NCBI GenBank assembly: GCA_013387205.1
Contig: WARV01000019.1
Coordinates: forward strand, 3,642-67,641
Source of the DNA: Patescibacteria group bacterium
GTDB lineage: Bacteria > Patescibacteriota > Doudnabacteria > UBA920
DNA length: 64,000 nt
Direction of reading: 5' to 3'
Of the stretch, positions 5,429-64,000 are shown piece by piece (positions within the stretch are counted from its first letter, which is position 1; every line of letters begins with the position of its first letter). The notes beneath the pieces were generated by a model. That model was not told the DNA's origin, made no database searches, and worked only from the letters and a program-made list of their open reading frames with translations. A program made the translations under genes and the position numbers.

Positions 5429-5430
5429 CT

Positions 5431-6099: not shown

Positions 6100-6128
6100 T
6101 TCATAATTCTAAATTCTTAATTCTATTT

Positions 6129-6842: not shown

Positions 6843-6915
6843 TTTTAAACATTCAAACATCTAAACATTTAAGCATTTTGCTGATGTTTATATGTTTACA
6901 TGCTTATATGTTTTT

Positions 6916-7422
6916 ATGATTATACTAGGTATTGACCCGGGAACAGCCACAACCGGATACGGAATTATCAAGCCAGCCAAAAGGCAAGGGGAGTTTGAAT
7001 TGGTGGATTTTGGCGTAATAACAACCAAAAAAGACTTGAGCGATGCCGCGAGGCTAGAAATTTTAGCAGGAGATTTGGAAAGCATTATAAAAAAATTCAA
7101 GCCAGATGCCGTGGGGGTGGAAAAACTTTTTCTAACCACCAACCAAAAAACCGTAATGACCGTGTCCCAAGCCAGGGGAGTGGTGCTGTTTATCTGCCAA
7201 AAGCATAAACTGCCAATTGCAGAATTCACGCCGCTGCAGGTAAAAAATTTCATTTGCGGTTATGGCAAAGCCGACAAAAAACAAGTGCAATACATCATTC
7301 AAAAAACTTTCAAACTAAAATCCGTCCCAAAGCCGGATGACGCGGCAGACGCTTTGGCTATTGCGGTCTGCACCGCTTACCGCCAGCAAAGAGAAAACAA
7401 TTTATCCACTAGACGAAGATAA
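6916..7422 (+). CDS. ruvC: Holliday junction resolvase RuvC
   Basis: MIILGIDPGTATTGYGII N-terminus and catalytic acidic residues. Start chosen at the internal ATG. Confidence 0.85.
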   Translation: MIILGIDPGTATTGYGIIKPAKRQGEFELVDFGVITTKKDLSDAARLEILAGDLESIIKKFKPDAVGVEKLFLTTNQKTVMTVSQARGVVLFICQKHKLPIAEFTPLQVKNFICGYGKADKKQVQYIIQKTFKLKSVPKPDDAADALAIAVCTAYRQQRENNLSTRRR

Positions 7423-7561
7423 ATGCGGCTGTTATAATTGGCCTAAGTCAAGCTCCTAATCAATTTAATCCCGGTTAGATACATCTAACAGGAAAGTTCC
7501 CCTAAAATTTGAGCCTGATAAACGGCCAAGGATTTTACGGAACTCAAGGAGAAACATAAAA

Positions 7562-7666
7562 ATGTTTTTTGATGACGAACAAACCACAACGCCAGCCGAT
7601 GACACAATGGCCGACACGCCAGAAGAAACACAGGAAGAAGAAACTGCTGGCGAAGAGCAAGTATAA
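7562..7666 (+). CDS. Possible small acidic protein (34 aa, MFFDDEQTTTPADDTMADTPEETQEEETAGEEQV)
   Basis: AGGAGA RBS 9 nt upstream. Followed immediately by a hairpin terminator. Not in the ORF track because it is under 60 aa. Confidence 0.25.
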   Translation: MFFDDEQTTTPADDTMADTPEETQEEETAGEEQV

Positions 7667-7670
7667 ACAA

Positions 7671-7700
7671 AAACCCTCCCGACCCCGGGAGGGTTTTATA
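7671..7700. terminator. Bidirectional terminator AAAACCCTCCCGACCCCGGGAGGGTTTT
   Basis: GC-rich stem CCCTCCCG/CGGGAGGG flanked by A and T runs. Lies between the small ORF and the tyrS 3' end. Confidence 0.7.
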
Positions 7701-7701
7701 A

Positions 7702-8883
7702 TTATAATATTTTTACAAACTTTCTTTTTCCAACCTGCAAGAGCAGGTTGTTTTTTTGCCCAATGTCCATCTTTTGTTCGTCTGCCGCCTGCTGGTTAAT
7801 TTTAACTCCTTTTTGGGCGATTAACCTTCTGGCTTCTGTTTTGCTGCCAGCTAATCCTGCTATAAAAACCAGTTCCGACAGCTGGTACTGCCCGGGTTTA
7901 ATTTTCATACTGGGGATTTCGGAAGGAAGCTCTCCTTTGGAAAACTGAGAAATAAAAGCCTGCTTGGCTTCTTCCGCTTTTTTATCCCCGTGATATAAAG
8001 CGGTAATGGCAAAAGCTAAGGCTATTTTTTGGTCCCTGGGATTCGGCAATTTCATAATTTTGCCGATTTCTTCCGTTTCCAGCCTGGTAGCCATAATAAA
8101 ATATTTTTCAATCAAGCTGTCATGTACAGACATGACTTTTCCGAACATATCCTTGTGCTCGTCCATGATATTTATGACATTGCCCCAGGAAGAGGACATC
8201 TTCCTGCCATCAGTTCCTTCTAAAAGCTTTGTTGTGATGATATCCTGCGGCTGCTGCCCGTAATTCGGCTGAATAGTTCTGCCAGCGAGCAAATTAAAGC
8301 GCTGGTCCGTGCCGCCAATTTCTACATCCGCCTTAACCGCCACGCTGTCATAGCCCTGCATCAACGGATAAAGCAGCTCGCGCAGGCTCACTCTTTTTCC
8401 CGCTTTGAGCCTTTTGGCAATGTTTTCCCTGGCTTCAAACTCGTGCAGTCCGAACAAGTCAGCCAACTTGCCGATTTCATGGAAGCCTAATTTTTTCAGC
8501 CACTTGGAATTATAATATGTCTCGGTTTTGCTTTTATCCAAAATTTTCAAAGCCTGGGAAAAATACGTTTTCAAATTGGCTTTCACCTGGGCTTCGGTCT
8601 GCATCGGCCTTTCTGCTTCTTTGTCCGAAGTATCGCCTATAAGTCCCGTAAAATCTCCGACAATAAACACCACCTTGTGGCCCATCTCCTGGAAAGCCTT
8701 AAGCTTCCACAAAACCACCGCCCTGCCAATATGGATATTCGGGCTGGTAGGGTCTATCCCAAGTTTTATTCGCAACTTTTTTCCGGAATTCAGCAAGGAC
8801 TCCAAATGCTCCCTGTCAATCACTTCTTCCACTCCTCGCGTTAAAAGTTCGTTAATTTTCGCCTGGTTTTTAGAAACGTTCAT
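7702..8883 (-). CDS. tyrS: Tyrosine--tRNA ligase
   Basis: Class I HIGH-like motif (HIGR), KMSSS (KMSKS) motif, C-terminal S4 domain. Confidence 0.8.
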   Translation of the reverse strand: MNVSKNQAKINELLTRGVEEVIDREHLESLLNSGKKLRIKLGIDPTSPNIHIGRAVVLWKLKAFQEMGHKVVFIVGDFTGLIGDTSDKEAERPMQTEAQVKANLKTYFSQALKILDKSKTETYYNSKWLKKLGFHEIGKLADLFGLHEFEARENIAKRLKAGKRVSLRELLYPLMQGYDSVAVKADVEIGGTDQRFNLLAGRTIQPNYGQQPQDIITTKLLEGTDGRKMSSSWGNVINIMDEHKDMFGKVMSVHDSLIEKYFIMATRLETEEIGKIMKLPNPRDQKIALAFAITALYHGDKKAEEAKQAFISQFSKGELPSEIPSMKIKPGQYQLSELVFIAGLAGSKTEARRLIAQKGVKINQQAADEQKMDIGQKNNLLLQVGKRKFVKIL

Positions 8884-9210
8884 AAATATGGCTGTTTTTT
8901 AAGTAAGAAGTAGTCTTGAAAAGCTGCTTTTCAGGCGATATTCCAGAATTTTGTGCCAAGATGCCAAAAATCTGGAATTGCAGCCAAAATGAGGTTTTGA
9001 GATTACTTCTAAAGCAACAGTGCTTACTGTTACCAAAAAATTACAATTTCGTCTTTTATATTATAGCACTTTTACTGTTGCGCCAGAATAATAACAACAA
9101 AAATTCGCTTATTTGCAAATTTTTTGAGGGGGTTTATCTATCCGGCTAAAAAAGCTATAATTAAATAGCAGTTTCTTATTATCAAACGTGTTTTTGTTAA
9201 TCCATAAACA

Positions 9211-12078: not shown

Positions 12079-12255
12079 TTTATACATAGAATAATCATTC
12101 TGAGCGACCGTAAAATAAATTCCTAATTCCTAATTCTCAAGCTCTAAACAATTTCTAATTTCCCAATTTCTTAATTTCAAATAATTTAGGCATTGGGTCA
12201 TTGGGATTTATTTAAAATAATTAGGTTAATTAAAAATTAGGTTAATTTTATATTA

Positions 12256-14994: not shown

Positions 14995-15058
14995 AACGTT
15001 AGAATTAAGAATTATGAATTAAGAATTATGAATTTTCATAATTCCTGATTCCTGCTTC

Positions 15059-16600: not shown

Positions 16601-16605
16601 TATAA

Positions 16606-16693
16606 AATCCTAATGCCCCGAATCAGCATCCGAATGCCCCAAACAATTCCCTTTCGGGTCATTTGGGTAAGAATTCGGGTAATTCGGATTATA
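16606..16693 (-). repeat. CCGAAT-rich leader element copy B (ends 5 nt before the rpmH ATG)
   Basis: Reverse complement is GTATAATCCGAATTACCCGAAT...CCAAATGACCCGAAAGGGAA...TTTGGGGCATTCGGATGCTGATTCGGGGCATTAGGATT. Confidence 0.9.
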
Positions 16694-16699
16694 CTTTTT

Positions 16700-16911
16700 A
16701 ATTTCTTGGTATATTATAAAGAAAAATAGAGGATTGGTCAATATTTCCCCTGACTTTTCTTTAATTTTCGCTAAGCACACTTTTTCCACAGCATATTCAC
16801 AGTATGTTAAAATTACCTTATAAACAAGCCTTAATTTTACTTGTTTACATGTTGATAACTCCCTGTTAAAATAAAAAAACACTGACAAACACAGATAAAA
16901 ACTAATTTTTT
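16700..16911. other. Candidate oriC part 1: DnaA-box-like motifs upstream of dnaA (TTTTCCACA at 16782; TTATCAACA reverse complement at 16852) in an AT-rich spacer
   Basis: 8/9 matches to TTATCCACA, read directly. Position between rpmH and dnaA. Confidence 0.4.
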
Positions 16912-19618: not shown

Positions 19619-19627
19619 ACAATAATA

Positions 19628-19719
19628 TAATCCGAATTATCCGAATATTGCAATCCAAATGCCCCGAATAGGGAACATTTGGGGTATTCGGGTAGTAATT
19701 CGGAGTATTAGGATTATAC
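19628..19719 (+). repeat. CCGAAT-rich leader element copy C (ends 3 nt before the recF ATG)
   Basis: TAATCCGAATTATCCGAAT...CCAAATGCCCCGAATAGGGAACATTTGGGGTATTCGGG...ATTCGGAGTATTAGGATTATAC. Confidence 0.9.
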
Positions 19720-19722
19720 TTC

Positions 19723-20808
19723 ATGAAAATAAGAAACATCCAAATTAAAAACTTCCGCAATTATCCAAGCTTAAACATAAGCATTAATAATGACGTGGTG
19801 GTTTTAAGCGGGCCAAACGCGGTTGGAAAAACCAACCTACTTGAATCCGTATATTTCGCCTCGTTATTTAAATCGTTCAGGGACGACACGGAATTCATCT
19901 TTTTGAAGGGCTGCGACAGTCTGGAATTGAAAATGACCGTTGAAAAAGAAGATGAAGAACATTTGCTGGAAGTTTTCTTGGAAAAAAGGGATAAGGTTTA
20001 TGCAAATTTCCTGATTGACGGAGTTAAAAAGAAGCGTAAAGAAGCACAGGGGTTTATGAGTGTTGTTATTTTCGACCCGACTGACGTGGATATGTTCAGT
20101 AAATCCCCGGATTCCAGAAGAAAATATTTGAACATGGTTTTGTCCCAGAAAAACTTAAACTACCTGGACGCTTTGGCAAATTATAAAAAAGCGTTATTCC
20201 AAAAAAACAAACTCCTTGCTGACATTAGAGCAGGAAGGGTGCAGAACACCGGCCTGGAAGAATGGAACGAGCAGCTTGTATCTTTTGGCAGCCAGATAAT
20301 TTTAGAAAGAAAGAAATTCATTAATTACCTGAATAACAGTATTGCGGATGTTTATACCACGATTTCCGGGTTCCATAGGCCGGTAGAAGTGTCTTACGAG
20401 ACATTGCCGGGAGATATTTTGGAAGAAATCCAGGACAGTTTCAGGCAGAAACTTGAAGCCTTAAAGAGTAAAGAAGCGATTTTAGCCAATTGCCTTGTCG
20501 GACCCCATCGAGACGACTTTTTCCTTAAGAGCGAAGGCTTGTTCTTGTCTCCATTTTCTTCCAGGGGAGAACTAAGGAGCCAGGTGTTGGCTTTAAAAGT
20601 CCTGGAGCTTGAATACTTAAGCAGGGAAAACAACAAGCCGATTCTGCTGCTTGATGATGTTTTGTCCGAGTTGGATGAAACCAGAAGGACCTTTTTACTG
20701 AAATATTTGCAAGGGAAATTCCAGACGTTTATAACCACCACACATCCTTTGGAAATGCCGGCACAGCACATCACCTTGACGCCGGCAACCCAGGAAGAAG
20801 AAGCTTGA
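19723..20808 (+). CDS. recF: DNA replication and repair protein RecF
   Basis: Walker A GPNAVGKTN and ABC-type signature region. Synteny dnaA-dnaN-recF. Confidence 0.9.
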   Translation: MKIRNIQIKNFRNYPSLNISINNDVVVLSGPNAVGKTNLLESVYFASLFKSFRDDTEFIFLKGCDSLELKMTVEKEDEEHLLEVFLEKRDKVYANFLIDGVKKKRKEAQGFMSVVIFDPTDVDMFSKSPDSRRKYLNMVLSQKNLNYLDALANYKKALFQKNKLLADIRAGRVQNTGLEEWNEQLVSFGSQIILERKKFINYLNNSIADVYTTISGFHRPVEVSYETLPGDILEEIQDSFRQKLEALKSKEAILANCLVGPHRDDFFLKSEGLFLSPFSSRGELRSQVLALKVLELEYLSRENNKPILLLDDVLSELDETRRTFLLKYLQGKFQTFITTTHPLEMPAQHITLTPATQEEEA

Positions 20809-20943
20809 TATCTACTAAATACTAAAAGGTACTAAATGTACTAAATATCATCAAATAGACTTAATTGATATCAGTACTGGTATATTACTTTAGTACCTTT
20901 CGTATATTTTAGTATTTAGTAGAAGAATTAGTAGAAAAACAAA

Positions 20944-22049: not shown

Positions 22050-22079
22050 AAATGGCTCAACCGTACGGTTGAGCCATTT
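22050..22079. terminator. Bidirectional hairpin terminator AAATGGCTCAACC-GTAC-GGTTGAGCCATTT followed by a T-run (GAATGGCTCAACC hairpin family)
   Basis: 13-bp perfect stem between convergent genes. Confidence 0.75.
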
Positions 22080-22080
22080 T

Positions 22081-22530
22081 TTATCTTGCTTTTTCCAGCT
22101 TGGCTTCTTTAACTTTTTTTACTAATTCGCTTGAACTTTGGATCTTGCCACTTTTTCCTATATTGTAAACCATTTCAATTCCAAGCTTTTCACAAACCAT
22201 TACTTCCGGCACCGGGTCGCCGTCCGGTTTTCTGTCACCGCCGTTGGCAAAGACATCAGGTTTTAAAATTTCAAGCTCAGCGCTGACCGACATATCCTTA
22301 GGCTCTTCCGCGTGGTTGGTAATTAAAACCTCGTCAACATACTTAATAGCTTCAATTACCGCCTTGCGCTCCTTTTCATTCATGAACGCAAAGCCTTTTT
22401 TCTTTTTCAACCAGTTATCGTTATTTAAAATGACTACCAAGCGATCCCCTAACTCTTTAGCTTCCTTCATCATCTCGATATGGCCGATGTGTACCGGATC
22501 AAAGCCTCCGGAAATTGCGATTATTTTCAT
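22081..22530 (-). CDS. Cytidylyltransferase-like nucleotidyltransferase (HIGH-motif family)
   Basis: MKIIAISGGFDPVHIGHIEMM N-terminus. The track ORF extends to 22653, but the true start is at 22530, directly after the repeat element. Confidence 0.7.
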   Translation of the reverse strand: MKIIAISGGFDPVHIGHIEMMKEAKELGDRLVVILNNDNWLKKKKGFAFMNEKERKAVIEAIKYVDEVLITNHAEEPKDMSVSAELEILKPDVFANGGDRKPDGDPVPEVMVCEKLGIEMVYNIGKSGKIQSSSELVKKVKEAKLEKAR

Positions 22531-22534
22531 ATAT

Positions 22535-22612
22535 GTAATCCTAATGCCCCGAATTAGCATCCAATGTCCCAATAATATCCCTAAATTATTCGGGTCATTT
22601 GGATAATATTCA
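22535..22612 (-). repeat. CCGAAT-rich leader element copy D (partly degenerate at the distal end; ends 4 nt before the ATG at 22530)
   Basis: Proximal end ATTCGGGGCATTAGGATTACATAT-ATG on the minus strand. Confidence 0.8.
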
Positions 22613-22671
22613 GGGAAGATAACTGTTAGGTACAGCTTTTGACGTATCAGCAAACAAAAAATTGCTGTTTT

Positions 22672-24584: not shown

Positions 24585-24591
24585 ATAAATA

Positions 24592-24686
24592 TAATCCTAA
24601 TGACCCGAATAATATCCGAATTATCCAAATGTGCCAAAAGGGAGTTTTCGGGTCATTAGGATGCCGATTCGGGGTATTCGGATTAC
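24592..24686 (-). repeat. CCGAAT-rich leader element copy E (ends 7 nt before the ruvB ATG)
   Basis: Reverse complement GTAATCCGAATACCCCGAAT...CCTAATGACCCGAAAA...ATTCGGGTCATTAGGATTAT. Confidence 0.9.
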
Positions 24687-24692
24687 AATATC

Positions 24693-26302: not shown

Positions 26303-26420
26303 AAAACTAATGCGAATGATGCGAAATAGTATGCGAAAATCGCGAAATCTGCTGCAAACACTTTAATGTATTTTTCGCGTAATTCGCATAGCCTTTTGCG
26401 ATATTCGCATTATATATATT
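26303..26420. repeat. ~110-bp imperfect palindrome rich in TGCGAA(A/T) repeats in the divergent tsaE / DHH-gene spacer
   Basis: GCGAA repeated 5 times on the left half and TTCGC 5 times on the right half. The halves are approximately reverse complementary. Confidence 0.6.
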
Positions 26421-29460: not shown

Positions 29461-29499
29461 TTTCTACTAAATACTAAAAGATACGAAAAATACTAAATT

Positions 29500-29527
29500 A
29501 AAATACCGCTTGTTCAAGCGGTATTTT
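29500..29527 (+). terminator. Hairpin terminator AAAATACCGCTTG-TT-CAAGCGGTATTTT
   Basis: 13-bp stem followed by a T-run after the pilB-like gene. Confidence 0.75.
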
Positions 29528-40974: not shown

Positions 40975-41016
40975 GAATTAAGAATTTAGAATTATGAATT
41001 AAGAATTTGGCAGTAA

Positions 41017-41058
41017 CAATTCCCGGATTTCGAGCGATCGCTCGAAATCCGGGAATTG
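41017..41058. repeat. 42-bp perfect palindrome CAATTCCCGGATTTCGAGCGA/TCGCTCGAAATCCGGGAATTG
   Basis: Exact reverse-complement symmetry, centre CGATCG. Downstream of the giant surface-protein gene. Confidence 0.9.
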
Positions 41059-41422: not shown

Positions 41423-41510
41423 ACCTTTGACATTTGACCTTTGACTTTAGGATGTCAATTGTCAGATGTTAATTGTCAATTGTAATGAAATTAATTTGAC
41501 ACGGCCTTGA
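41423..41510 (-). promoter_or_regulatory. rpsT 5' region with three tandem GTCAAAGG repeats and several TTGACA boxes
   Basis: Minus strand reads CAATTGACAATTAACATCTGACAATTGACATCCTAAAGTCAAAGGTCAAATGTCAAAGGTTTAATAA-ATG. Confidence 0.5.
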
Positions 41511-43048: not shown

Positions 43049-43154
43049 AAAAAAACAAGAGAGAGTAATTAGGAAGCTCTTAAGAATAATCTCTCCATTA
43101 ATTTGTGAGACTCTTCGTTGTTCGACTCCTTAAGAATGACGCCTGGATATATAA

Positions 43155-43305
43155 GATTGCTTCGGAAACAAGCCAAAGCCCTTGTTTCCTCGCAATGACA
43201 TCCTTTGTTTCCTGTCATCGCGAGGAGCCCGCAGGGCGACGTGGCGATCCTTAACCAAGGAAAGATTGCTTCGTCGTCAGATGCATTCCTCCTCGCAATG
43301 ACAAG
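43155..43305. mobile_element. RPE-like MITE, ~1.5 tandem copies (intergenic)
   Basis: TGTCATCGCGAGGAGC...AGATTGCTTCG...CCTCGCAATGACA with an extra upstream right-end fragment AGATTGCTTCGG...CCTCGCAATGACA. Confidence 0.6.
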
Positions 43306-43358
43306 ATGTGATCGATATTGGCCAAAGTTACTCTTTGACCATAAAAATAACGGCTAAA

Positions 43359-43395
43359 TCCTAGGAAATTCAGGATTTAGCCGTTAAAAATATAT
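43359..43395. repeat. Hairpin AACGGCTAAATCCT-AGGAAATTC-AGGATTTAGCCGTT (AACGGCTAAAWCCTA family), downstream of uvrB
   Basis: 14-bp perfect stem flanked by A and T runs. Confidence 0.8.
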
Positions 43396-46809: not shown

Positions 46810-46936
46810 AATTAAATTGATCTAATTATTTTAATTTCTAATTGACCTAAATAAACCCCAATCCCTAAATCCCAATTAGACATTAGATATTATTTAAAAT
46901 AATTAGATCAATTAGGTTAATTAGGAATTTGCAAAC

Positions 46937-48012: not shown

Positions 48013-48028
48013 TTATAATGGAGATTTT

Positions 48029-48065
48029 AACGGCTAAATCCTAGATATTTTAGGATTTAGCCGTT
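48029..48065. repeat. Hairpin AACGGCTAAATCCTA-GATATTT-TAGGATTTAGCCGTT (AACGGCTAAAWCCTA family)
   Basis: 15-bp perfect stem between the convergent FemAB and Clp genes. Confidence 0.8.
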
Positions 48066-48079
48066 TAATTTATAGTTTA

Positions 48080-51453: not shown

Positions 51454-52809
51454 ATGATGAATTCGATTAAAATTTTAATTAAAAAATATTTAATTCCGGA
51501 AAGCCTGCTTAAAGTACTGCGCCCCTTTTACCATGGCGCTATAGCTTTGGCCGGGCATTGGTGTTTTGGCAAACCGAGCGAAAAAATGGTCGTGATTGGC
51601 GTAACCGGCACTAACGGCAAATCAACCACGGTTAATTTGATCGCGCGGATTTTGCAGGAAGCCGGAAATAAAGTTGGCTACACTTCCACGGTTACGGTTA
51701 ATTTCGGGAGCTTGGAGAGTTTGAATAAGTTAAAAATGACCATGCCCAGTGGCTGGCTTTTGCATAAATGGATGAAGCAGATGGTAAATGCAGGGTGCAA
51801 GTATGCGGTTTTGGAAGTGTCCAGCGAAGGCTTGGCGCAGAACCGTCATTTGGGGATAAATTTTGACGTTGCGGTTTTTACCAACCTTACGCCTGAGCAT
51901 TTGGATTCGCATGGCGGGTTTGAGCCGTACAAATTGGCCAAAGCAAGGCTTTTTAAAGCAATTTCCAAGAACCAAGAAACAAGAGCCAAACAAATAATAA
52001 ATTCCAAATTACAAAAAACAATTATTGTTAATGCAGACGACAAGTCATCGGAATATTACAGAAACCTCAAGGCTGATAAATATTTTTCTTATGGCGTAAA
52101 GGATCGGTCCACGGACTTTGCCGCGAAAGATATCAAATACTCTCCAAGCGGGATAGGCTATACGCTGAACGCTTTACGCTATACGCTCAAACTCAAAGGG
52201 CAATTTGACGTTTATAATTCCTTGGCTGCAATTGCCACGGCGCAATCGCAAAACATTTCTTTGGAAGTTTGCAAAGCCGCTTTGGAAAAGGTGGAAGTGG
52301 TGCCTGGCCGCGTGGAAGTAATTAAACAAGAGCCTTTTACAGTTGTGGTAGATTACGCGTATGAGCCTGAGGAAATGAGGCAGCTTTACGAAACAATCTC
52401 CCGCTGGCCGCATAACAAGATTATCCAGGTAATGGGCGCAACCGGAGGCGGCAGGGATAAGAACAGGATTTTTACATTAGGGGAAATGGCCGGCAAATTC
52501 GCATCCGCGGTTTTTATTACCACCGATGACCCTTACGATGACGATCCGAAAATTTTAAGCCAGCCCATGGTGGAAGGCGCAGAAAAAAGCGGCAAGCAAT
52601 TGGAACAAAATTTGTTTTGCGAATACGGCCGCCGCGCTGCCATCGGCCGCGCTGTTTGCATGGCGCAAACCGGGGATTTGGTTTTAATTACCGGCAAAGG
52701 TGCGGACCAAAAAATGGCTTTGGCCAATGGGCAATATATTGATTGGGATGATAGAGTAGTAGTGAAAGAAGAATTAGCTAAGTTGCCATCCTTGATTCAT
52801 AATTCTTAA
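51454..52809 (+). CDS. Mur ligase family protein (MurE-like UDP-MurNAc-tripeptide synthetase)
   Basis: P-loop GVTGTNGKSTT and the Mur ligase middle/C-terminal domain pattern (DYAYEPEE). Start chosen at ATG 51454, 5 nt after the TGtTATAAT at 51442-51449. Confidence 0.75.
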   Translation: MMNSIKILIKKYLIPESLLKVLRPFYHGAIALAGHWCFGKPSEKMVVIGVTGTNGKSTTVNLIARILQEAGNKVGYTSTVTVNFGSLESLNKLKMTMPSGWLLHKWMKQMVNAGCKYAVLEVSSEGLAQNRHLGINFDVAVFTNLTPEHLDSHGGFEPYKLAKARLFKAISKNQETRAKQIINSKLQKTIIVNADDKSSEYYRNLKADKYFSYGVKDRSTDFAAKDIKYSPSGIGYTLNALRYTLKLKGQFDVYNSLAAIATAQSQNISLEVCKAALEKVEVVPGRVEVIKQEPFTVVVDYAYEPEEMRQLYETISRWPHNKIIQVMGATGGGRDKNRIFTLGEMAGKFASAVFITTDDPYDDDPKILSQPMVEGAEKSGKQLEQNLFCEYGRRAAIGRAVCMAQTGDLVLITGKGADQKMALANGQYIDWDDRVVVKEELAKLPSLIHNS

Positions 52810-52812
52810 TTC

Positions 52813-53157
52813 ATGATTTTATTCATCGATACATCTGATTTTAATAAAGTGACTTTTGCTCTGGTTGGCAAAAAAGTTTTAAAGAAGTCTTACCGTATCA
52901 ATCCGCGCGAGAGCCACGAGACTTTAAAAAAACTGGACGAGTTTTTAAAGTCGGTTAAATGTCAAAGGTCAGATGTCAAAGGTGTTTATGTTTGCAGCGG
53001 GCCGGGCAGTTATACGGGCGTCAGGATTGGCGTGACTGCGGCGCAGGCTTTGGGCTTTGCTTGGCAAATACCGGTTACAGCTTTGGAAAAAGAAAAAGTT
53101 CCAGTCAGCCTTTTGGATCTAGCTAAGGTTAAAGGAAAGAGGTTGTATAGGCCGTAA
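52813..53157 (+). CDS. tsaB: Truncated TsaB (YeaZ)-like protein, N-terminal half only (114 aa)
   Basis: MILFIDTSDFNKVTFAL...GPGSYTGVRIGVTAAQALGF matches the TsaB N-terminal core. Contains the 23-nt GTCAAAGGTCAGATGTCAAAGGT motif at 52961-52983. Confidence 0.55.
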   Translation: MILFIDTSDFNKVTFALVGKKVLKKSYRINPRESHETLKKLDEFLKSVKCQRSDVKGVYVCSGPGSYTGVRIGVTAAQALGFAWQIPVTALEKEKVPVSLLDLAKVKGKRLYRP

Positions 53158-53319: not shown

Positions 53320-53348
53320 GAATAACTCAACCTATGGTTGAGTTATTC
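53320..53348. repeat. Hairpin GAATAACTCAACC-TATG-GGTTGAGTTATTC (variant of the GAATGGCTCAACC family), followed by a second small hairpin and T7
   Basis: 12-bp perfect stem. Confidence 0.7.
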
Positions 53349-54837: not shown

Positions 54838-55085
54838 AATTTATTTAAATATTATTTAAAAAACATGGTTGTAAATTGACCTAATTAACCTAATTAACCT
54901 AATTTCCGCCAGCTGGCGGACTAAACAAACCCCAATTCCCAATTCCTAATACTAACTCCCTCTGTCTCCCTCTTTAGAAAAGAGGGAGAACATGCTAAGA
55001 AAGGCTATAGCCTTGCTTAGCTGGTTCCTTCTCTTTTTCTAAAGAGAAGGGCAGGATGAGTTAATAATAATTAGAATAATTTTTT

Positions 55086-56111
55086 CTACTCTTCTTCAAA
55101 CTCATGCCCCGTTAAGTCCAAATATACGTCTTCGAGCGTTGCGGTTTTGACCATAAAGCCGTAAAAGACAATATTGTTTTGTTTAAGCAGGCTAATTACC
55201 GCGCTGACTTTATCTAAATTGGTAATTTCTAAAATCACCTTGGGATAGCTGGCGTGGATTTTTTTTATTTCCGGCAAAGTTTTAAAGAGTTCCTGGTTTA
55301 TCTGGCTTTCCGTAAAAAAGGAAATCTGCGTAGTTTCAGACAAGCGGTCAATTAATTTTTTCGGTTCATCGATTTCCAAAATTTTTCCCGAATCCATTAT
55401 GGCAACGCGATTGCACAAAAATTCCGCCTCTTCCATGTAGTGGGTGGTTAAAATAATGGTTATGCCCTGCTTGTTGATGTTTTTTACTAATTGCCAAAGG
55501 TTCCTGCGGGCGGAAGGGTCAAGGCCGGTAGTCGGTTCGTCCAAAAATAAAATGTCGGGATTATGGACCAAAGAGGTGGCTATGGTAAAGCGCTGTTTTT
55601 GCCCGCCGGAAAGCTTGCTGACCAATTCATGCTCTTTGTCTTCCAGGTTGACGAGTTTAAGGAGGGCTTTTCTTCTGTCATCGCGAGGGAGCGCATCCGA
55701 CCGTGGCGATCTGTTTATAGATTGCTTCCCCCTTCGCCAAGGCTTCGGAGGACAGGTCGGCTGCACTCGCAATGACATCGGGTAAAGTGATGCGAATAAA
55801 TCCAGCAGTTCTCCCAGAGTCAAGTGATGCAAATATTCGCTCGATTGCAGCTGAATGCCAATGCGCTCTTTGACCTTGTCGGCATTTTCTAGATTATCAA
55901 ACCCCAAAACATTGATTGTGCCCGAGGTTTGTGCCCGGAGGCCTTCAATGATTTCCAAAGTCGTGGTTTTACCAGCCCCGTTGGGCCCGAGTATTCCAAA
56001 AATCTCGCCTTTTTGCACGGAAAAGCTAACCCCATTAACCGCTTCAAAGGCGTTTTTCTTACCCTGGTTATAAGTTTTCTTTAAGTCTTTGACTTCAATA
56101 ACATTTTGCAT
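55086..56111 (-). CDS. ABC transporter ATP-binding protein carrying a 36-aa in-frame insertion derived from an RPE-like element
   Basis: Walker A GPNGAGKTT, signature LSGGQKQR, Walker B ILFLDEPT. The Pro/Arg-rich insert LRVQPTCPPKPWRRGKQSINRSPRSDALPRDDRRKA lies between the Q-loop and the signature motif. Confidence 0.85.
   Translation of the reverse strand: MQNVIEVKDLKKTYNQGKKNAFEAVNGVSFSVQKGEIFGILGPNGAGKTTTLEIIEGLRAQTSGTINVLGFDNLENADKVKERIGIQLQSSEYLHHLTLGELLDLFASLYPMSLRVQPTCPPKPWRRGKQSINRSPRSDALPRDDRRKALLKLVNLEDKEHELVSKLSGGQKQRFTIATSLVHNPDILFLDEPTTGLDPSARRNLWQLVKNINKQGITIILTTHYMEEAEFLCNRVAIMDSGKILEIDEPKKLIDRLSETTQISFFTESQINQELFKTLPEIKKIHASYPKVILEITNLDKVSAVISLLKQNNIVFYGFMVKTATLEDVYLDLTGHEFEEE
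55677..55777. mobile_element. RPE-like MITE copy inserted in-frame in the ABC ATPase gene
   Basis: TIRs TGTCATCGCGAGGGAGCGCATCCGACC / GGTCGGCTGCACTCGCAATGACA. Internal AGATTGCTTCCCCCTTCGCCAAGGCTTCGGAGGACAGGTCGG matches the copy at 51296. Confidence 0.7.
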
Positions 56112-56173
56112 GGTTTAATTATATCACGATTTTCCCTTATTTTAAGAGGTGTTTAAAAACAGGCTTATTTATA

Positions 56174-56287
56174 CCCTTAATACAAAATTCGATATGGCCA
56201 GCTAATCAAAACATCGATTTTTAACCTAGTTTAAGCTGTTTTTTAGAGCTTTGCAATCTGACAGAATCGAATGTTGTTTTGCGGGGT
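56174..56287. repeat. ~115-bp inverted-repeat element upstream of rpoB (CCCTTAATACAAAATTCGATATGG ... CAGAATCGAATGTTG...CGGGGTA)
   Basis: Homologous to the element at 60367-60482 upstream of rpoC. Confidence 0.7.
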
Positions 56288-56295
56288 ATGCGGAA

Positions 56296-56329
56296 TTGAA
56301 TGGCTTGAGCCTTAGGTTGAGCCATTCAA
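56296..56329. repeat. Imperfect hairpin TTGAATGGCTTGAGCC-TTAG-GTTGAGCCATTCAA (GAATGGCTCAACC family)
   Basis: Conserved stem with a few mismatches. Confidence 0.65.
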
Positions 56330-56522
56330 AATATCTAATTTTATGGGTATTTTCAAGGGGGGCACCTTGAATTAATCAAAGGTGTGAATAAAAAAGAAAG
56401 AAGTCAAAAAAATCCGCTTATTTTAGGGGATTTTGATTAATTTTGTAAGTATATGCTATTTGTGCTATCATCAGTATATAATCAAGACTTTGGGAGGATT
56501 CGCATATTAGTGGATTTAGGAC

Positions 56523-56550
56523 TTGACAAAAATATCTTGACAGGTATAAT
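56523..56550 (+). promoter_or_regulatory. Sigma70 promoter TTGACA-16-TATAAT upstream of rpoB (~235-nt leader)
   Basis: Hexamers read directly. A second TTGACA overlaps the spacer. Confidence 0.5.
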
Positions 56551-56787
56551 CCAAATATGCACAATTTTATAAGATTTTAAGCCTAAAGCTAAACGGCCTT
56601 TTTTGCGTATGCGGAAAAGGGTGATGTTTTATGCTCTGCTATCACGAATTTGGGGAGATCGTGGGCAAAAAACATCATTTTAGTCGAGCAGCGGCTTAAC
56701 TTGAGGTCTGTAATTTGAGTTTACAGGCCTGATAAGGTTTATCATTAACAGCCTTTAAAGCAGATTTAAAGGTAAGGATCTTGTTTA

Positions 56788-59700
56788 ATGCAAACTAAAG
56801 CCAAGTCCATAAGTATCGCCGCAGCGCACAGCGCCAAGGCACAAGTCGCGCAGAGGAAATTTTTCAACAAATTCCACGAAGTTTCCCTGGTGCCGAACTT
56901 AATAGAGATCCAGCTGAATTCCTACCGCTGGTTTTTGGAAAAAGGACTCAAGGAACTGCTTGGGGAAATAAACCCCATCCGTGATTTCACGGGAAAGAAT
57001 TTGGAACTGTATTTTGGCGATTATTTTTTTGATAAAGCCAAGTACGACGAATTCACATCGCGCGAGCGCAATACCACTTTCGAAGCTCCGCTGTACGTGT
57101 CCGCCAAACTGGTCAACAAGGTAACCGGCAAGACCAAAACCCAAGATGTCTATTTTGGGGATTTCCCTTTGATGACTCCACGCGGCACGTTCATTATTAA
57201 CGGCGTGGAGCGCGTGGTGGTTAACCAGCTCATTAAGTCTCCGGGCGTGTTCTTTACCGCGGAAAATATCCGCGGCAAAAAGCTCTACGGCGCCAAAATT
57301 ATCCCAAACCGCGGCGCGTGGCTGGAACTGGATACTGACGCAGCCGGCGTGATTGGCGTTAAAATCGACCGCAAGAGAAGGATACCGATTACGGCTTTGC
57401 TTCGCGTGTTCGGGCTGTCTTCCAACGAAGAAATTTTGGCAAAGTTTTCTGATGTCGACACTGACCCGGACACCAAATTCATCCAGAACACTTTGGAAAA
57501 AGACGCATCCACCAATTCCGACGAAGGCTACAAAGAAGTTTACAAGAGAATCCGCCCCGGCGATTTGGCCACTGTAGACAACGCCAAGTCCTTGATTTCC
57601 GGCATGTTCTTTAACGCCGAGCGCTACGATTTGTCCGATGTCGGCCGCTACAAGTTCAACCAGAGAATGAATGTTACTGAAAAGAGCCAGATTTTAACTG
57701 TTGATGATTTGGCCCGGGTTGTTAAGGAAGTTATCCGCTTGAACAATACTCAGGAAATGGAAGATGATATTGACCACTTGGCCAACCGCCGCGTACGCGC
57801 TGTCGGGGAATTAATCCAAACCCGCTTCCGCGTGGGCTTAGCCCGCATGGCCAGGATTGCCAAGGACCGTATGAGCCTTGCTGATTTAGACACTGTTACC
57901 CCGGCCCAGCTTATCCATGTCCGCCCGATTGTTGCTACCATGCAGGAATTTTTCTCCTCTTCCCAATTGTCCCAGTTCATGGACCAGACCAATCCTTTGG
58001 CCGAACTCGAACACAAGAGAAGGCTTAGCGCCATGGGTCCCGGCGGGTTGTCCCGCGAGCGCGCGGGCTTTGAAGTTCGCGACGTGCACCGCTCCCACTA
58101 CGGACGCTTGTGTCCGATTACCACTCCGGAAGGCCCGAACATCGGTTTGGTTGCCCACTTGTCCACTTACGCCAGAGTCAACGATTTCGGATTCATTGAA
58201 ACCCCTTACCGCTTAGTCAAAAAGTTTGCCAAGAATAATGGCAAAGACGGTGTTGGAGAAATTCCGCTGTTTGACGTTAAAGGCGCAGATGGCAAAACAT
58301 TAGCCAAAGCCGGCGAAGTCATTTCCGAAAAACAGGCTAAGGATTTATCCAAAGACGACCAGGTTTTAGAATTCAGGATAAAGCCGCGCGTGACTGACGA
58401 AATTATCAGCCTGGACGCTTATGAAGAAGAAAGGCTGGTCATCGGCCAGTCTAATATAGAGATAGACGAAAACGGCTACTTTACCGAAGCCCGCTCTTCG
58501 GTTAGGGTGCATTCTTCCCCGAGCATTGCCGATACCAATGACATTGACTGTTTGGACGTCTCGCCCAAGCAGATTATTTCCGTTACCACTTCCTTAATTC
58601 CGTTTTTGGAACACGACGACGCTAACCGCGCTTTGATGGGATCCAACATGCAACGCCAGGCCGTGTCCTGCATCAGGCCGGACGCGCCGATTGTCGGCAC
58701 CGGCATGGAAATGAAATCCGCCAGGGATTCCGGGCAGGTGGTTATTGCCGAAGAAGACGGCGAAGTCACTTCTGTTTCCGGCGACAAAATTGTCGTGGTT
58801 GGCGACAAAGGCAAGAAGAAAGAATACCATTTGTTGAAATTCCTGCGCACCAACAGCGCCACTTCCATTAACCAGATTGCGCGCGTTAACAAGGGTGCAA
58901 AAGTCAAAAAAGGCGATCTTTTAGCCGATGGCGCGTCCACGCAGAACGGCGAACTGGCACTCGGCCAAAACGTTTTGGTGGCATTTATGTCCTGGGAAGG
59001 CGGCAACTACGAAGACGCCGTGCTGGTTTCCGAACGCGTGGTGCAGAGAGATTTATATTCCTCCATCCACATTGATGATTTTAAAATAGATGTGCGCGAC
59101 ACCAAGCTCGGGGCCGAGCAGATTACCCGTGACATCCCGAATGTCGGCGAAGAAAAACTTAAAGACTTGGACGATAGCGGAATTATCCGCATCGGCGCGC
59201 AGGTCAAAGCTGGCGATATTTTAGTAGGTAAAATTACGCCTAAAGGCGAAACCGATTTGACTGCGGAAGAAAAACTTTTGCGCGTGATATTCGGCGAAAA
59301 GTCCCGCGACGTTAAAGATACTTCCTTAACTTTGCCTCACGGCGAATACGGGAAAGTCGTTAACATCCGCCAGTTCACCAGGGAGGCCGGCGATAAGTTG
59401 CCCTCGGGCGTTATCCGTTCCATCCAGGTTTCAGTAGCAGTTTTGCGCAAAATCCAGGTTGGCGACAAGATGGCCGGCAGGCACGGGAACAAAGGTGTTA
59501 TCTCTAAAATTATTCCAGTTGAAGATTTGCCATTTATGGCAGACGGTACCCCGGTGGATATTGTACTGAATCCTTTGGGTGTCGTGTCCCGTATGAACTT
59601 GGGTCAGATTTTAGAAACCCACTTGGGCATGGCAGCTTTCAAACAAGGTTTCCGCGTTGCCACGCCAGTGCTCGACGGTGTTACGGAAAAACAAATTAAA

Positions 59701-60288
59701 GAAGAATTGACCAAGGCAGAAATCCCGACAGATGGCAAGGTTGTGCTTTATGACGGCAAGACCGGCGAACAGTTTGACGAGAAAGTCACTGTAGGTATTA
59801 TGTACTTCTTAAAACTGCACCACTTGGTTGATGACAAGATGCATGCCCGCTCCACTGGTCCGTACTCGCTTATCACCCAGCAGCCACTCGGCGGTAAAGC
59901 CCAGTTCGGCGGACAGAGATTCGGGGAAATGGAAGTTTGGGCCCTTGAAGGTTACGGCGCTGCCCACACTTTGCAGGAAATGCTGACCATCAAGTCCGAT
60001 GACGTGGTCGGCAGAAGCAAGACCTACGAAGCCATTGTCAAAGGCGAGCCGATTAAGAAGCCGAATGTTCCGGAATCTTTCCGCGTGTTGGTCAAGGAAT
60101 TGCAGTCGCTTTGCCTTGACGTTGAGCTGCTCGGCGCCGGCGGAGAAATTACCAGCGCCTCGCAGGAATCTGACGTGACTGCCGGAATGGATTTGCCTAA
60201 AGAGCCGGTAGCTGTGCCGGATGCCGCATCGTTATTTGCCGACGAACCGAAGAAAGAGAAGAAAAAGAAGGATAAAAAGTCGAAGTAA
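56788..60288 (+). CDS. rpoB: DNA-directed RNA polymerase subunit beta
   Basis: 1166 aa. Conserved RpoB blocks ([36 protein letters not shown]). Confidence 0.97.
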
Positions 60289-60366
60289 ATCTATATAAAA
60301 ATCTTTTAAAATTCAACTTTTTATCATTCAAAAATTAACCTAATTCCTAATTAACCTAATTTCTAA

Positions 60367-60482
60367 ACCCCGTAATACAACATTCGATATGGTTAGTAAT
60401 ATCAATATGTTGATAATATTAAAGGCTTAGTGGTTATCAATACTTGGTAAAGCAACAGAATCAAATGTTGATATACGGGGTA
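60367..60482. repeat. ~115-bp inverted-repeat element upstream of rpoC (CCCCGTAATACAACATTCGATATGG ... CAGAATCAAATGTTGATATACGGGG)
   Basis: Terminal inverted repeats CCCCGTAATACAACATTCGAT / ATCAAATGTTGATATACGGGG. Copy of the element at 56174. Confidence 0.7.
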
Positions 60483-60581
60483 AACAAACCCCAAATCCTA
60501 ATATCTAAACATTAGAAATTGGGAATTAGACATTATTTAGGTCAATTAGAGCAATTAGAATAATTAGAATAATTTATCTCT

Positions 60582-63500
60582 ATGTTAACCCAAACTGAGG
60601 ATTTCAAAGGCGTAAGGCTGAAACTGGCTAGCCCGGACACCATCTTAAACTGGTCCCATGGCGAAGTCACCAAGCCTGAAACCATCAACTATCGCACCCA
60701 GCGTCCGGAAAAGGACGGCTTGTTCGACGAAAAGATTTTCGGGCCTATTAAGGACTGGGAATGCTATTGCGGCAAATACAAGCGTATCCGCTACAAGGGG
60801 ATTGTCTGCGACAAGTGCGGCGTGGAAGTGACTAAGTCTTCCGTCCGCCGCGAGCGCATGGGTCATATTAAATTGTCCGTGCCCGTAGCCCATATTTGGT
60901 TTTTGCGCGGCGTACCGTCCAGACTTGGTCTTATGCTCGATTTAGGCGTGCAGGAACTGGAAAAAGTCGTCTACTTTGCCGCTTATATCATTTCCCATGT
61001 GGATGAAGAAGCCAGGACTAATACGGTTGACCAGATTGAACGCGAATTCAAAGCCAAGAAGAAAGCTATTGAAGAAAAATACGAAACTTTAATCGGCAAA
61101 ACCAAGTCTGCTTTGCAGCAAAAGAGCGGCAAAGTTGACGAGGATGTTTTGCAGGCGGAAATCGACGCGGAAATTACCAGGTTGAAAGACGCTTGGAGCA
61201 AGGAACTCGATGCGCTGGAATCCATCCGCGACCAGGCCAGGAGCGAACTTAAGTCTATCAAGAAATTGCAGATTATTTCCGAACTCCAATACCGCGATTT
61301 GTCCTTAAAGTACGGACCGGTTTTCACTGCGGGAATCGGCGCTGAAGCCTTAAAAGGATTGCTTGAAGAAGTTAATCTGGAAGAAATAGCTAAAGAGCTT
61401 GAAACCGAACTGCCGGATTTGGAAGGCCAGGCCGAGAGGAAAGTTTTAAAGCGCTTAAAGCTTATCAAGTCCTTAATTTTATCAGGTCTTCGCCCTGAAT
61501 GGATGCTTATTACCCATTTGCCGGTTATTCCTCCGGATTTGCGCCCTATGGTCCAGCTCGATGGTGGCCGCTTTGCCGCGTCTGACTTGAACGACTTGTA
61601 CCGCCGCGTGATTAACCGCAACAACCGCTTAAAGAAGCTTTTGGAAATCAAGGCTCCCGAAGTCATTACCAGGAACGAAAAGCGCATGCTGCAGGAAGCT
61701 GTTGATGCGTTAATTGACAATTCCATTCGCCACGGCAAGGAAGTCACCGCTTCCACCGGGCAAAAGAGAAAACTGCGCAGCTTGGCCGATATGCTCAAAG
61801 GCAAACAGGGCAGGTTCCGCCAGAACTTGCTCGGTAAGCGCGTGGACTACTCCGGCCGCTCCGTCATTGTCGTCGGCCCGCACTTGAAATTGCACCAGTG
61901 CGGTTTGCCGAAATTCATGGCGCTTGAATTGTTCAAGCCGTTCGTGATTTCCAAACTCATTGGCCGTGAGTATGCCCATAACGTCCGCAGCGCTAACCGT
62001 CTTATTGAACAAGGCCGCACCGAAGTTTATGATATTTTGGAAGAAGTCACCAAAGACCATTATGTTTTGCTTAACCGCGCCCCGACTTTGCACCGCTTGG
62101 GCTTCCAGGCTTTCCAGCCGGTATTGATAGAAGGAAAAGCCATCCAGTTGCATCCCATGGTTTGCGCCGCGTTTAACGCAGACTTTGACGGTGACCAGAT
62201 GGCTGTGCACGTGCCTTTGACCGAAGCCGCCCAAAAAGAAGCGCGCGAAATAATGGTCTCCGCCCACAACCTGCTTAAGCCGGCATCCGGCGATCCGGTT
62301 ATGACCCCGGACAAAGACGTGGTGGTCGGCTGCTACTACATCACCAAAATCCGCTCTGGCCTCAAAGGCGAAGGCAAGGTGTTTGCCAGCCCTCAGGAAG
62401 CCATTTTGGCTTACAATAACAAGTTCGTTAACATCCAGGCTAAAATTAAAGTCCGCTTGGACAATGGCGAAATTGTGGAAACATCCGTGGGCCGTTTGAT
62501 TTTCAACCGCATCGTTCCAAAAGAGTTCGGCTACAGAAACGAGCATTTTGACAAAAAGAAATTACAGGCTCTGGTCCGCGAAGCGCACCGCTTGTTCGGC
62601 AATAAGCAGACCGCCGAACTTATCGACGAAATCAAGCGCGTCGGCTACACCTATATGAAGCAATCGGGAATTTCCTGGGGTATGGATGACTTGCGCGTAC
62701 CGGACAGCAAGTACGAATTGTTCGGTCAAGCTGACAAGGAAGTGGAAACCACTTACCAGCAATACCGCGAAGGTTTGTTGACCGATGAAGAACGCAAGAA
62801 CCGCATTGTGGAAATTTGGGCAGACACCGGCGAAAAATTAGCTAAAGACGTGGCCCAGACAGTGGAAGACCACAGCTCAGTCAACTACATCTTTACTTCC
62901 GGAGGCAGGGGATCCATGTCGCAGATAAACCAGATGTCAGGTATGAAGGGCTTGGTGGTTAACCCGGCCGGTGACGTTATTGAATTGCCGGTTCGCGGCA
63001 GCTTTAAGGAAGGCTTGGCAGTTTTGGAATATTTCATTTCCACTCACGGCTCCCGTAAAGGTATGTCCGATACCGCTTTAAGGACCGCTGACGCCGGATA
63101 TTTGACCCGCCGCCTTGTCGACGTGGCCCAGGATATCGTGATTAACGCCGAAGATTGCGGCACTGAAGATTATGACATTGTGACTTTGGCTGACAGCCAG
63201 AGGATGAACAAGCCGTTGGACCGCAGGCTGTTCGGCCGCGTGGCCGCCGAAGACGTTAAAGGCAAAGACGGCAAAGTGATTGTCGAGAAAAATTCCGGCA
63301 TTAACGACGAGCAGGCCAAGATGATTATGGATGCCGGCGTGACCGAAGTTAAATGCAGGAGCGTATTAAAGTGCAAACTGTCGCGCGGCATTTGCCGTTT
63401 GTGCTACGGTTACGATTTGGGCTTTAACGATATGGTTAAGCTCGGCGCCGCTGTCGGGATTGTGGCCGCTCAGGCCATTGGTGAGCCGGGAACCCAGCTG

Positions 63501-64000
63501 ACCATGAGAACCTTCCACACCGGAGGTTCAGCGTCCGTTAAGGATATTACCCAAGGTTTGCCCAGAGTCGAAGAATTGTTTGAAGCCAGGGAACCTAAAG
63601 GGCAGGCGACCGTGGCCGAAGCGGACGGGCAAATTTACATTTCAAAGCCCAACAACAAGGAATACGTGGTCCGCATCCAAAGCCAGGACGTGGCTAAGGA
63701 TGTTTACCATTTAGGCAACGCCCGCTCTGCCATCAAAGACGGCAGTGCCGTGAATTCCGGCGACACCTTGTATATCGACGAGTCCGGCCAGAACATAAAA
63801 GCCAAGAGCAACGGCATTGTCAAAGTGGAAAAAGACAAAATCACTGTTATCCACGAAAGCGAAGACATGAAGGAATACGTCATCCCGGCTTCGTTCTCTT
63901 TGCTCGTTAAAGACGGCGACCTGGTGGTTAAAGGCCAGCAGCTGACCGAAGGTAACCTGAACCCGGGCCAGATTATGAATTTGAGGGGATTGGAACCAGC
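60582..64000 (+). CDS. rpoC: DNA-directed RNA polymerase subunit beta' (3'-truncated by window edge)
   Basis: Manual translation gives MLTQTEDFKGVRLKLASPDTILNWSHGEV...CYCGKYKRIRYKGIVCDKCGVEV (zinc finger), NADFDGDQMAVH (catalytic motif). The frame is open to the end of the window. Confidence 0.95.
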   Translation, partial: MLTQTEDFKGVRLKLASPDTILNWSHGEVTKPETINYRTQRPEKDGLFDEKIFGPIKDWECYCGKYKRIRYKGIVCDKCGVEVTKSSVRRERMGHIKLSVPVAHIWFLRGVPSRLGLMLDLGVQELEKVVYFAAYIISHVDEEARTNTVDQIEREFKAKKKAIEEKYETLIGKTKSALQQKSGKVDEDVLQAEIDAEITRLKDAWSKELDALESIRDQARSELKSIKKLQIISELQYRDLSLKYGPVFTAGIGAEALKGLLEEVNLEEIAKELETELPDLEGQAERKVLKRLKLIKSLILSGLRPEWMLITHLPVIPPDLRPMVQLDGGRFAASDLNDLYRRVINRNNRLKKLLEIKAPEVITRNEKRMLQEAVDALIDNSIRHGKEVTASTGQKRKLRSLADMLKGKQGRFRQNLLGKRVDYSGRSVIVVGPHLKLHQCGLPKFMALELFKPFVISKLIGREYAHNVRSANRLIEQGRTEVYDILEEVTKDHYVLLNRAPTLHRLGFQAFQPVLIEGKAIQLHPMVCAAFNADFDGDQMAVHVPLTEAAQKEAREIMVSAHNLLKPASGDPVMTPDKDVVVGCYYITKIRSGLKGEGKVFASPQEAILAYNNKFVNIQAKIKVRLDNGEIVETSVGRLIFNRIVPKEFGYRNEHFDKKKLQALVREAHRLFGNKQTAELIDEIKRVGYTYMKQSGISWGMDDLRVPDSKYELFGQADKEVETTYQQYREGLLTDEERKNRIVEIWADTGEKLAKDVAQTVEDHSSVNYIFTSGGRGSMSQINQMSGMKGLVVNPAGDVIELPVRGSFKEGLAVLEYFISTHGSRKGMSDTALRTADAGYLTRRLVDVAQDIVINAEDCGTEDYDIVTLADSQRMNKPLDRRLFGRVAAEDVKGKDGKVIVEKNSGINDEQAKMIMDAGVTEVKCRSVLKCKLSRGICRLCYGYDLGFNDMVKLGAAVGIVAAQAIGEPGTQLTMRTFHTGGSASVKDITQGLPRVEELFEAREPKGQATVAEADGQIYISKPNNKEYVVRIQSQDVAKDVYHLGNARSAIKDGSAVNSGDTLYIDESGQNIKAKSNGIVKVEKDKITVIHESEDMKEYVIPASFSLLVKDGDLVVKGQQLTEGNLNPGQIMNLRGLEP

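Follow-up and report, generated by a model that had tools for sequence, protein, structure and literature searches.

Why do rpoB and rpoC stand 293 bp apart in a member of the Patescibacteria (Candidate Phyla Radiation, CPR), with related palindromic elements on both sides of rpoB? The window, that is, the whole stretch of DNA analysed here, comprises 64,000 nt of contig WARV01000019.1 (NCBI GenBank assembly GCA_013387205.1; GTDB lineage Patescibacteriota, Doudnabacteria, UBA920; positions 3,642 to 67,641 of the forward strand), and coordinates below are those of the window. The original prediction described an inverted-repeat element of ~115 bp before each of the two genes and offered an independent rpoC promoter, a regulatory leader or invasion of a core operon by a miniature inverted-repeat transposable element (MITE) as explanations. 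MITEs are under about 600 bp in size and are defined by their dispersed multi-copy state. We consider it reasonably probable that both elements are small non-coding palindromic repeats of MITE type, limited to this Patescibacteria lineage, which arrived by two separate insertions. The features that carry this reading are as follows.

56174-56286, + strand: copy 1 of the palindromic element, 113 nt (covariance model, 130 bits)
56174-56197 and 56261-56286, + strand: 5′ arm and 3′ arm of copy 1
60368-60480, + strand: copy 2 of the palindromic element, 113 nt (covariance model, 139 bits)
60368-60392 and 60455-60480, + strand: 5′ arm and 3′ arm of copy 2
56788-60288, + strand: rpoB coding sequence (open reading frame (ORF) and Pfam)
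60582-64000, + strand: rpoC coding sequence, from the ATG at 60582 and running past the window end (Pfam)

The ORF limits bear out the 293-bp separation (spacer 60289-60581), and Pfam supports both genes. With the element limits taken from CCC to GGGG, each copy is exactly 113 nt long, and the two copies have the same orientation on either side of rpoB. Placement of a copy before each gene held for rpoC, but copy 1 ends 501 nt before the rpoB ATG. The shared end sequences were found at both sites: the 20-mer TAATACAAMATTCGATATGG is present in the window at 56178 and 60373 only (chance expectation 0.01), and exact occurrences of ACAGAATCRAATGTTG are confined to 56261 and 60455. Terminal inverted repeats of ~25-26 nt extend to the element ends, with CCCCGTAATACAACATTCGAT pairing with ATCAAATGTTGATATACGGGG. 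In both copies the outer stem is CCCCG/CGGGG, followed by a 5x5 internal loop and an 11-bp stem (CAACATTCGAT/ATCGAATGTTG); inside the latter lie a conserved ATGG/CAGA loop and a variable interior of 63 and 62 nt in the two copies. The words ATCRAT/TTGATA are repeated within the element. ORFs from the shared ATG have only 3 and 13 codons and are not conserved between the copies.

The similarity between the copies ends exactly at the inverted termini and is unevenly distributed within them. The arms are identical at 45 of 52 positions (87%), with the unpaired segments TAATA, ATATGG and ACAGA kept, whereas the interiors agree at 35 of 63 positions (55%), barely above shuffled sequences (p about 0.05); the sharing originally proposed therefore applies to the arms and not to the interior. 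Conserved termini around a free interior are the usual MITE pattern. Neutral decay from a single source would have produced even divergence, so the difference between arms and interiors points either to two subfamilies, and hence more copies, or to selection on the arms in place. The 11-bp stem contains two differences (A.G in copy 1 and C.A in copy 2), each of which breaks a pair, and comparison of the two sequences (n = 2) revealed no compensatory change in the stems. Judged from the pairing, these differences are decay from a perfect palindrome, not covariation. Copy 1 is the more decayed copy, while copy 2 is a near-perfect long hairpin.

Signs of insertion were sought in the flanks of both copies and in the spacer surrounding copy 2.

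60320-60581, + strand: host spacer, a member of a recurrent palindromic spacer family, with copy 2 nested inside
60364-60367, no strand: TAAA direct repeat left of copy 2, putative 4-bp target-site duplication
60481-60484, no strand: TAAA direct repeat right of copy 2
56170-56173, no strand: TATA left of copy 1, read from the sequence; the right flank is TATG at 56287-56290

The TAAA repeats are not part of the inverted repeat, which would need TTTA on the left. The flank duplications are perfect for copy 2 (TAAA/TAAA) and match at three of four positions for copy 1 (TATA/TATG), in flanks that are short and AT-rich and with boundaries set after viewing the sequence. The host spacer has CCTAATT words in its left arm, AAACAAACCCCAA in the middle and AATTAG/AATTAGG words in its right arm; the AATTAG word repeats of the original prediction are thus present, accompanied by CCTAATT. 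After removal of the element and one TAAA, the spacer aligned colinearly, and unbroken over the junction, with three other spacers of the window (46810-46936, 54850-54975 and 12100-12255; local-alignment z of 10.4, 8.8 and 9.2 vs. shuffles). Each of these paralogous spacers has a single CTAAA at the junction point, and they represent empty sites for copy 2. The nesting of copy 2 in another spacer family, together with the direct TAAA duplication, is the mark of an insertion event. An empty site for copy 1 was also looked for, and none was found.

Comparison with relatives covered the rpoB loci of nine genomes with RpoB proteins 84-87% identical to the one studied here, about 128 kb in all. Neither BLAST nor a covariance model derived from copies 1 and 2 detected the element at either position or elsewhere in these loci. 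The rpoB-rpoC spacers of the relatives are 29, 52, 52, 73, 97, 101, 214, 540 and 690 bp long and contain unrelated inserts, among them a GC-rich hairpin with a repeat bounded by TGTCATTGCGAG...CTCGCAATGACA in locus L001 and a small antisense ORF in locus L031. This range of lengths and the unrelated inserts show that the rpoB-rpoC site tolerates insertions. In L031, a gene for a PemK toxin, an entire Cas12a-Cas4-Cas1-Cas2 locus and a transposase of IS3 type separate the ABC-transporter ATPase gene from rpoB (1262-9087), which makes the stretch before rpoB a hotspot for insertions in this clade. A Y1 transposase gene was observed near rpoB in L001. The possibility that rpoB itself had been imported on its own between the repeats was rejected, as RpoB and RpoC are equally distant from their L001 counterparts (86% identity each).

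The position of copy 1 was assessed against the promoters of rpoB, with sigma-70-like sites scored at a threshold of at least 9 of 12.

56443-56630, + strand: conserved rpoB control region, downstream of copy 1 (promoter scan and conservation)
56443-56471, + strand: P1, TTGTAA-17-TGnTATCAT
56523-56550, + strand: P2, TTGACA-16-TATAAT, a 12/12 promoter match
56597-56630, + strand: leader hairpin with U-tract, terminator-like

This control region is common to L001 (3790-4000) and L013 (about 1530-1905) and is partly retained in L014 (about 2800-3000). Up to 56787 it also includes a conserved ATATGCACAATTTNATAAG stretch and the hairpin GGCCTTTTTTG...CAAAAAAGG followed by GATGTTTT; the hairpin with its U-tract looks like a leader attenuator. 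The rpoB start codon directly follows the leader in L001, while 150-250 nt more lie between them here and in L013. Copy 1 sits between the divergent ABC-transporter promoter and those of rpoB, and ends 157 nt before P1 and 237 nt before P2. The distance from the ABC-transporter -10 box to the first rpoB promoter is about 310 nt here vs. about 25 nt in L001. Since copy 1 lies upstream of P1, P2 and the leader, it is unlikely to be in the rpoB mRNA and is probably outside the rpoB transcript. The regulatory leader of the original prediction was not upheld: the element is missing from relatives at both positions, copy 1 precedes the conserved promoters and leader, and the stem differences are non-compensatory. 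A regulatory role conserved in the clade is accordingly not supported by these comparisons, and the element does not appear to be a conserved control feature.

The proposal of an independent rpoC promoter fared no better. No + strand sigma-70-like site reached the threshold in 60289-60581, where promoter-like sites were found only on the - strand, and the scan detected no terminator after rpoB. The words TTGATA (60468) and TAATAT (60499) are separated by 25 nt, more than a promoter allows. The simplest expectation would be co-transcription of rpoBC through copy 2. The rpoC ATG (window 60560-60584) is without a recognisable Shine-Dalgarno sequence, as is that of L002, L012, L013 and L014.

Fold prediction gave a strong hairpin for copy 2 (-39.3 kcal/mol, z -6.4) and a weak one for copy 1 on the sense strand (-27.3 kcal/mol, z -1.9; z -3.8 on the - strand); neither strand was consistently better folded. 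The whole rpoB-rpoC spacer was predicted to form a nested hairpin (-66.9 kcal/mol, z -5.9), with the copy 2 hairpin within the spacer's own long stem. RNAalifold, uninformative with only two sequences, did not recover the arm helix.

Searches for further copies were made at several scales. Neither exact arms nor the two-copy covariance model revealed a third copy in the window. The two-arm pattern ATTCGATATGG-N50-80-CAGAATCNAAT gave 9 matches in GTDB species genomes (596 Gb, a set that does not include the host genome) and 13 in JGI metagenomes; all are attributed to chance because the arms do not extend past the pattern. As this pattern needs arms 50-80 nt apart, it would miss a complete insertion sequence that shares these termini. 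Single-arm patterns in viral contigs gave 2 chance matches and 0 matches, and BLAST against plasmids and phages gave no match. Rfam, searched with the whole window at gathering thresholds, returned one tRNA only, and nothing relevant in 56000-60700 at E up to 10. In full-text literature searches, neither MITEs nor palindromic intergenic repeats turned up as a subject of study in CPR/Patescibacteria. The element is thus known from two sites only so far, as a local duplication would predict, but a simple segmental duplication does not fit: the copies cease to resemble each other exactly where the palindrome stops, and divergence is much greater in the interiors than in the arms.

Taken together, the inverted repeats reaching the element ends, the putative 4-bp duplication, the paralogous empty sites, the nine empty relatives and the lack of coding capacity make MITE invasion of a core operon the better supported of the original proposals. 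On this view there were two independent insertions, apparently accompanied by duplication of 4 bp of target. Copy 1 would have landed in the non-transcribed stretch that separates the divergent ABC-transporter promoter from the rpoB promoters, and copy 2 near the apex of a palindromic rpoB-rpoC spacer that already existed. Movement would have depended on a transposase encoded elsewhere or since lost, and the contrast between arms (87%) and interiors (55%) suggests that the source comprised at least two subfamilies. If copy 2 is co-transcribed with rpoBC, it would add a hairpin of roughly -39 kcal/mol to the mRNA. By analogy with Correia and ERIC repeats, such a stable hairpin is probably added and could serve as a double-strand RNase site or stability element; in the mRNA it would be a side effect of the insertion rather than a conserved regulator.

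Several points weigh against this reading. Just two copies are known, whereas a MITE is defined by a dispersed multi-copy state. No autonomous element with matching termini is known, and Pfam detected no transposase in the window. An IS1380-type partner, with termini starting with CC and a 4-5-bp duplication, is no more than a conceivable candidate. The possible 4-bp duplication around copy 1 is imperfect, at best degraded, and ambiguous, because TATA is itself palindromic. Given about 50 intergenic regions in the window, a second copy would land by chance in a region next to the first in roughly 4% of cases, and the placement around rpoB hints at local hopping or a link to rpoB. Finally, the genome is full of other hairpin spacers, perhaps from a different process.

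Nearly every short spacer of the window is a hairpin of ~100-130 nt made of short AT-rich words and belonging to recurrent families. Between co-directional genes, most short spacers are such hairpins over their entire length, with tandem words of 7-10 nt in one arm and their complements in the other; the words include TACTAAA, GAATTAAGAATTA, ATGCGAA, TTGACA and CCTAATT, and the families recur in both orientations.

4220-4307, 20809-20943, 29461-29507; 6091-6125, 14995-15058, 40975-41022, 52788-52826: word-hairpin spacers
26303-26420; 41423-41490; 12079-12255, 46810-46936, 54860-54950: further word-hairpin spacers
3836-3946, 16601-16707, 19619-19722, 22530-22617, 24585-24692: five-copy family of ~105-nt hairpins with ATCCGAAT/ATTCGGG words

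In the five-copy family, the one copy that was folded (19619-19725) had a z of -6.7. The gene-facing end of every copy reads TTAGGATTA(Y)A, with the start codon 5-9 nt on (rpmH, recF, ruvB and others); the palindrome therefore carries a Shine-Dalgarno-like AGGA and its complement. Some words of this family (TTATCCGAA) resemble DnaA boxes, and two copies flank dnaA-dnaN. Spacers of the relatives L001, L013, L014, L015 and L031 are built in the same style from other words, and literature searches found no description of word-built hairpin spacers. These spacers may be a more interesting lead than the 113-nt element.

Their abundance raises the alternative that the element was never transposed and is one more of the genome's own word-hairpin families, which fill most co-directional gene gaps. 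Recombination, gene conversion or slippage might spread or copy such hairpins, which might persist for a general role in separating cistrons, stabilising mRNA or presenting a ribosome-binding site. At least six such families with recurrent copies of about 100-130 nt occur in the window, the ATCRAT/TTGATA word repeats lie within the element, and the TAGGATTA family always ends 5-9 nt before a start codon, which suggests function over random insertion. However, copy 1 lies between divergent promoters and not between co-transcribed genes, copy 2 is nested in another spacer family with a direct TAAA duplication, and the element arms, unlike those of the other families, do not consist of tandem words. 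We regard this account as unlikely, if by no means negligible. It is decidedly unlikely that the hairpins serve rpoB as functional signals in RNA or DNA, be they original or a co-opted mobile repeat, which might act as double-strand RNase stems bracketing the rpoB message or as regulator or RNA polymerase sites balancing beta and beta-prime. The element is missing from both positions in nine relatives, copy 1 precedes P1 and P2 and folds poorly on the sense strand (z -1.9), and neither compensatory changes nor an Rfam match were found, although both copies are 113 nt long and lie in one orientation around rpoB (a placement with a chance of roughly 4%), the arms with their unpaired TAATA, ATATGG and ACAGA are far better kept than the interior, and copy 2 has a very stable fold in a presumably transcribed spacer. 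In a bolder reading, the element would be part of an undescribed clade-wide intercistronic hairpin system, in which nearly every spacer may be a word palindrome of ~100-130 nt, some bearing a ribosome-binding site; a mobile member would have been retained around rpoB with its arms bound by a factor, which may be a double-strand RNase, RNA polymerase or a nucleoid protein, setting rpoB independently of rpoC. We hold this to be a long shot.

Two further explanations were weighed. That the element or the nearby AT-rich words form an independent rpoC promoter gains some appeal from the length (293 bp) and AT-richness of the spacer and from the general knowledge that Correia-type repeats create promoters at their ends. 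It is nonetheless very improbable, given that the spacer has no + strand site of at least 9/12, that TTGATA and TAATAT are too widely separated, that rpoB has no downstream terminator in the scan and that relatives with spacers of 29-101 bp do without such a promoter. Finally, the two copies might be small-RNA genes in which conserved scaffold arms flank a segment that varies in sequence but not in length (about 62 nt), in the style of guide RNAs. The kept arms, variable interior and near-constant length (63 and 62 nt) would suit this idea, but we find it hardly credible: neither copy has a convincing promoter or terminator around it, Pfam showed no associated effector gene nearby, and there were no relatives in the GTDB genomes, JGI metagenomes or viral contigs searched.

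If the reading as two MITE-type insertions is true, even a very small, streamlined CPR genome can carry palindromic repeats of mobile type within its most conserved operon, and the rpoB-rpoC junction of the clade (spacers of 29-690 bp) is a recurrent landing site. For annotation, a long rpoB-rpoC gap in these genomes need not signal a separate rpoC promoter. The finding adds to the record of mobile elements in Patescibacteria and leaves knowledge of RNA polymerase regulation unchanged.

Other palindromic repeats were observed in the window. One of them, a member of another small repeat family, adjoins copy 1.

56299-56326, no strand: short palindrome adjoining copy 1 (AATGGCTTGAGCC..GGTTGAGCCATT)

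It belongs to a REP-like set of three short palindromes, AATRRCTCAACC-loop-GGTTGAGYYATT followed by YAAAA, with the other copies at about 22050-22078 and about 53320-53345. A palindrome of ~120 nt (TAATACTAACTCCCTCTGTCTCCCTCTTTAGAAAAGAGGGAG...) lies at 54947-55069 between two ABC-transporter genes; as these genes overlap in L002 and L033, it is a further case of a lineage-specific hairpin inserted within an operon. Repeats bounded by TGTCATYGCGAGG / CCTCGCAATGACA, with inner motifs GATTGCTTCG / CGAAGCAATC, were seen at 43140-43320 of the window and at 7600-7850 in the L001 rpoB-rpoC spacer; this type appears to be shared across genomes, as seen by eye, although BLAST gave no link. A three-copy hairpin, TAACGGCTAAATCCTAG...CTAGGATTTAGCCGTTA, stands at gene ends (697-743, 43348-43394 and 48028-48074) and is probably a recurrent terminator-like palindrome.

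The window as a whole is a core chromosomal stretch of an uncultured Patescibacteria bacterium, with core genes including gyrA, rnpA, yidC, dnaA, dnaN, recF, ruvABC, polA, uvrB and clpB. The best identity of RpoB in the protein collection was at most 87%, and the named matches were 'Patescibacteria group bacterium' and Candidatus Doudnabacteria. A tRNA-Ile gene with anticodon TAT was identified at 1048-1124 on the - strand (ARAGORN; Rfam tRNA model, 74 bits).

Among known systems, the E. coli rplL-rpoB attenuator/RNase III site and ribosomal-protein or rpoB leaders resemble the element as structured RNA in the rpoBC transcription unit. However, the conserved leader of this clade is separate (56557-56787, with promoter, hairpin and U-tract; L001, L013 and L014), and the 113-nt element is not conserved.

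Integron attC sites (about 60-140 nt) resemble the element in their imperfect palindromic form and in having a variable centre between conserved ends; here two copies bracket a gene in direct orientation. The candidate boxes agree at only 5-6 of 7 positions (ATACAAC and ATACAAA vs. RYYYAAC; GTTGATA and GTTGTTT vs. GTTRRRY) and are internal, with a further CCCCG/CGGGG stem outside them. An integron origin was rejected on account of these partial internal boxes, read by eye, the lack of an integrase in the window (Pfam) and a 'cassette' that would be the essential rpoB.

REP/BIME sequences mobilised by RAYT (Y1) transposases are also palindromic extragenic repeats that accumulate between genes, and L001 has its Y1 gene near rpoB. 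They are clustered single hairpins of 20-40 nt without target duplication, whereas the element stands alone, is 113 nt long and ends in inverted repeats. With this difference in form and no Y1 transposase in the window, a REP/RAYT origin was judged unlikely, and so were palindromic elements derived from IS200/IS605.

ERIC/IRU of Enterobacteria and RUP of Streptococcus pneumoniae come closer, as imperfect palindromes of about 107-127 bp in transcribed spacers with presence/absence among relatives. They are conserved over their full length and have many copies, in contrast to the element, in which conservation is limited to the termini.

Correia elements (CREE/NEMIS) of Neisseria are inserted in intergenic regions, including those within operons, and are co-transcribed, with their hairpin cut by RNase III. 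They occur in hundreds of copies and duplicate TA, compared with two known copies and an apparent 4-bp TAAA here; the host here is a member of the Patescibacteria, and there is no detectable sequence relationship. Nevertheless, they share with the element a non-coding palindromic form (about 100-155 bp), terminal inverted repeats of ~26 bp and, apparently, a short A/T target duplication. Palindromic repeats of the Correia, ERIC and RUP type are its closest known counterparts.

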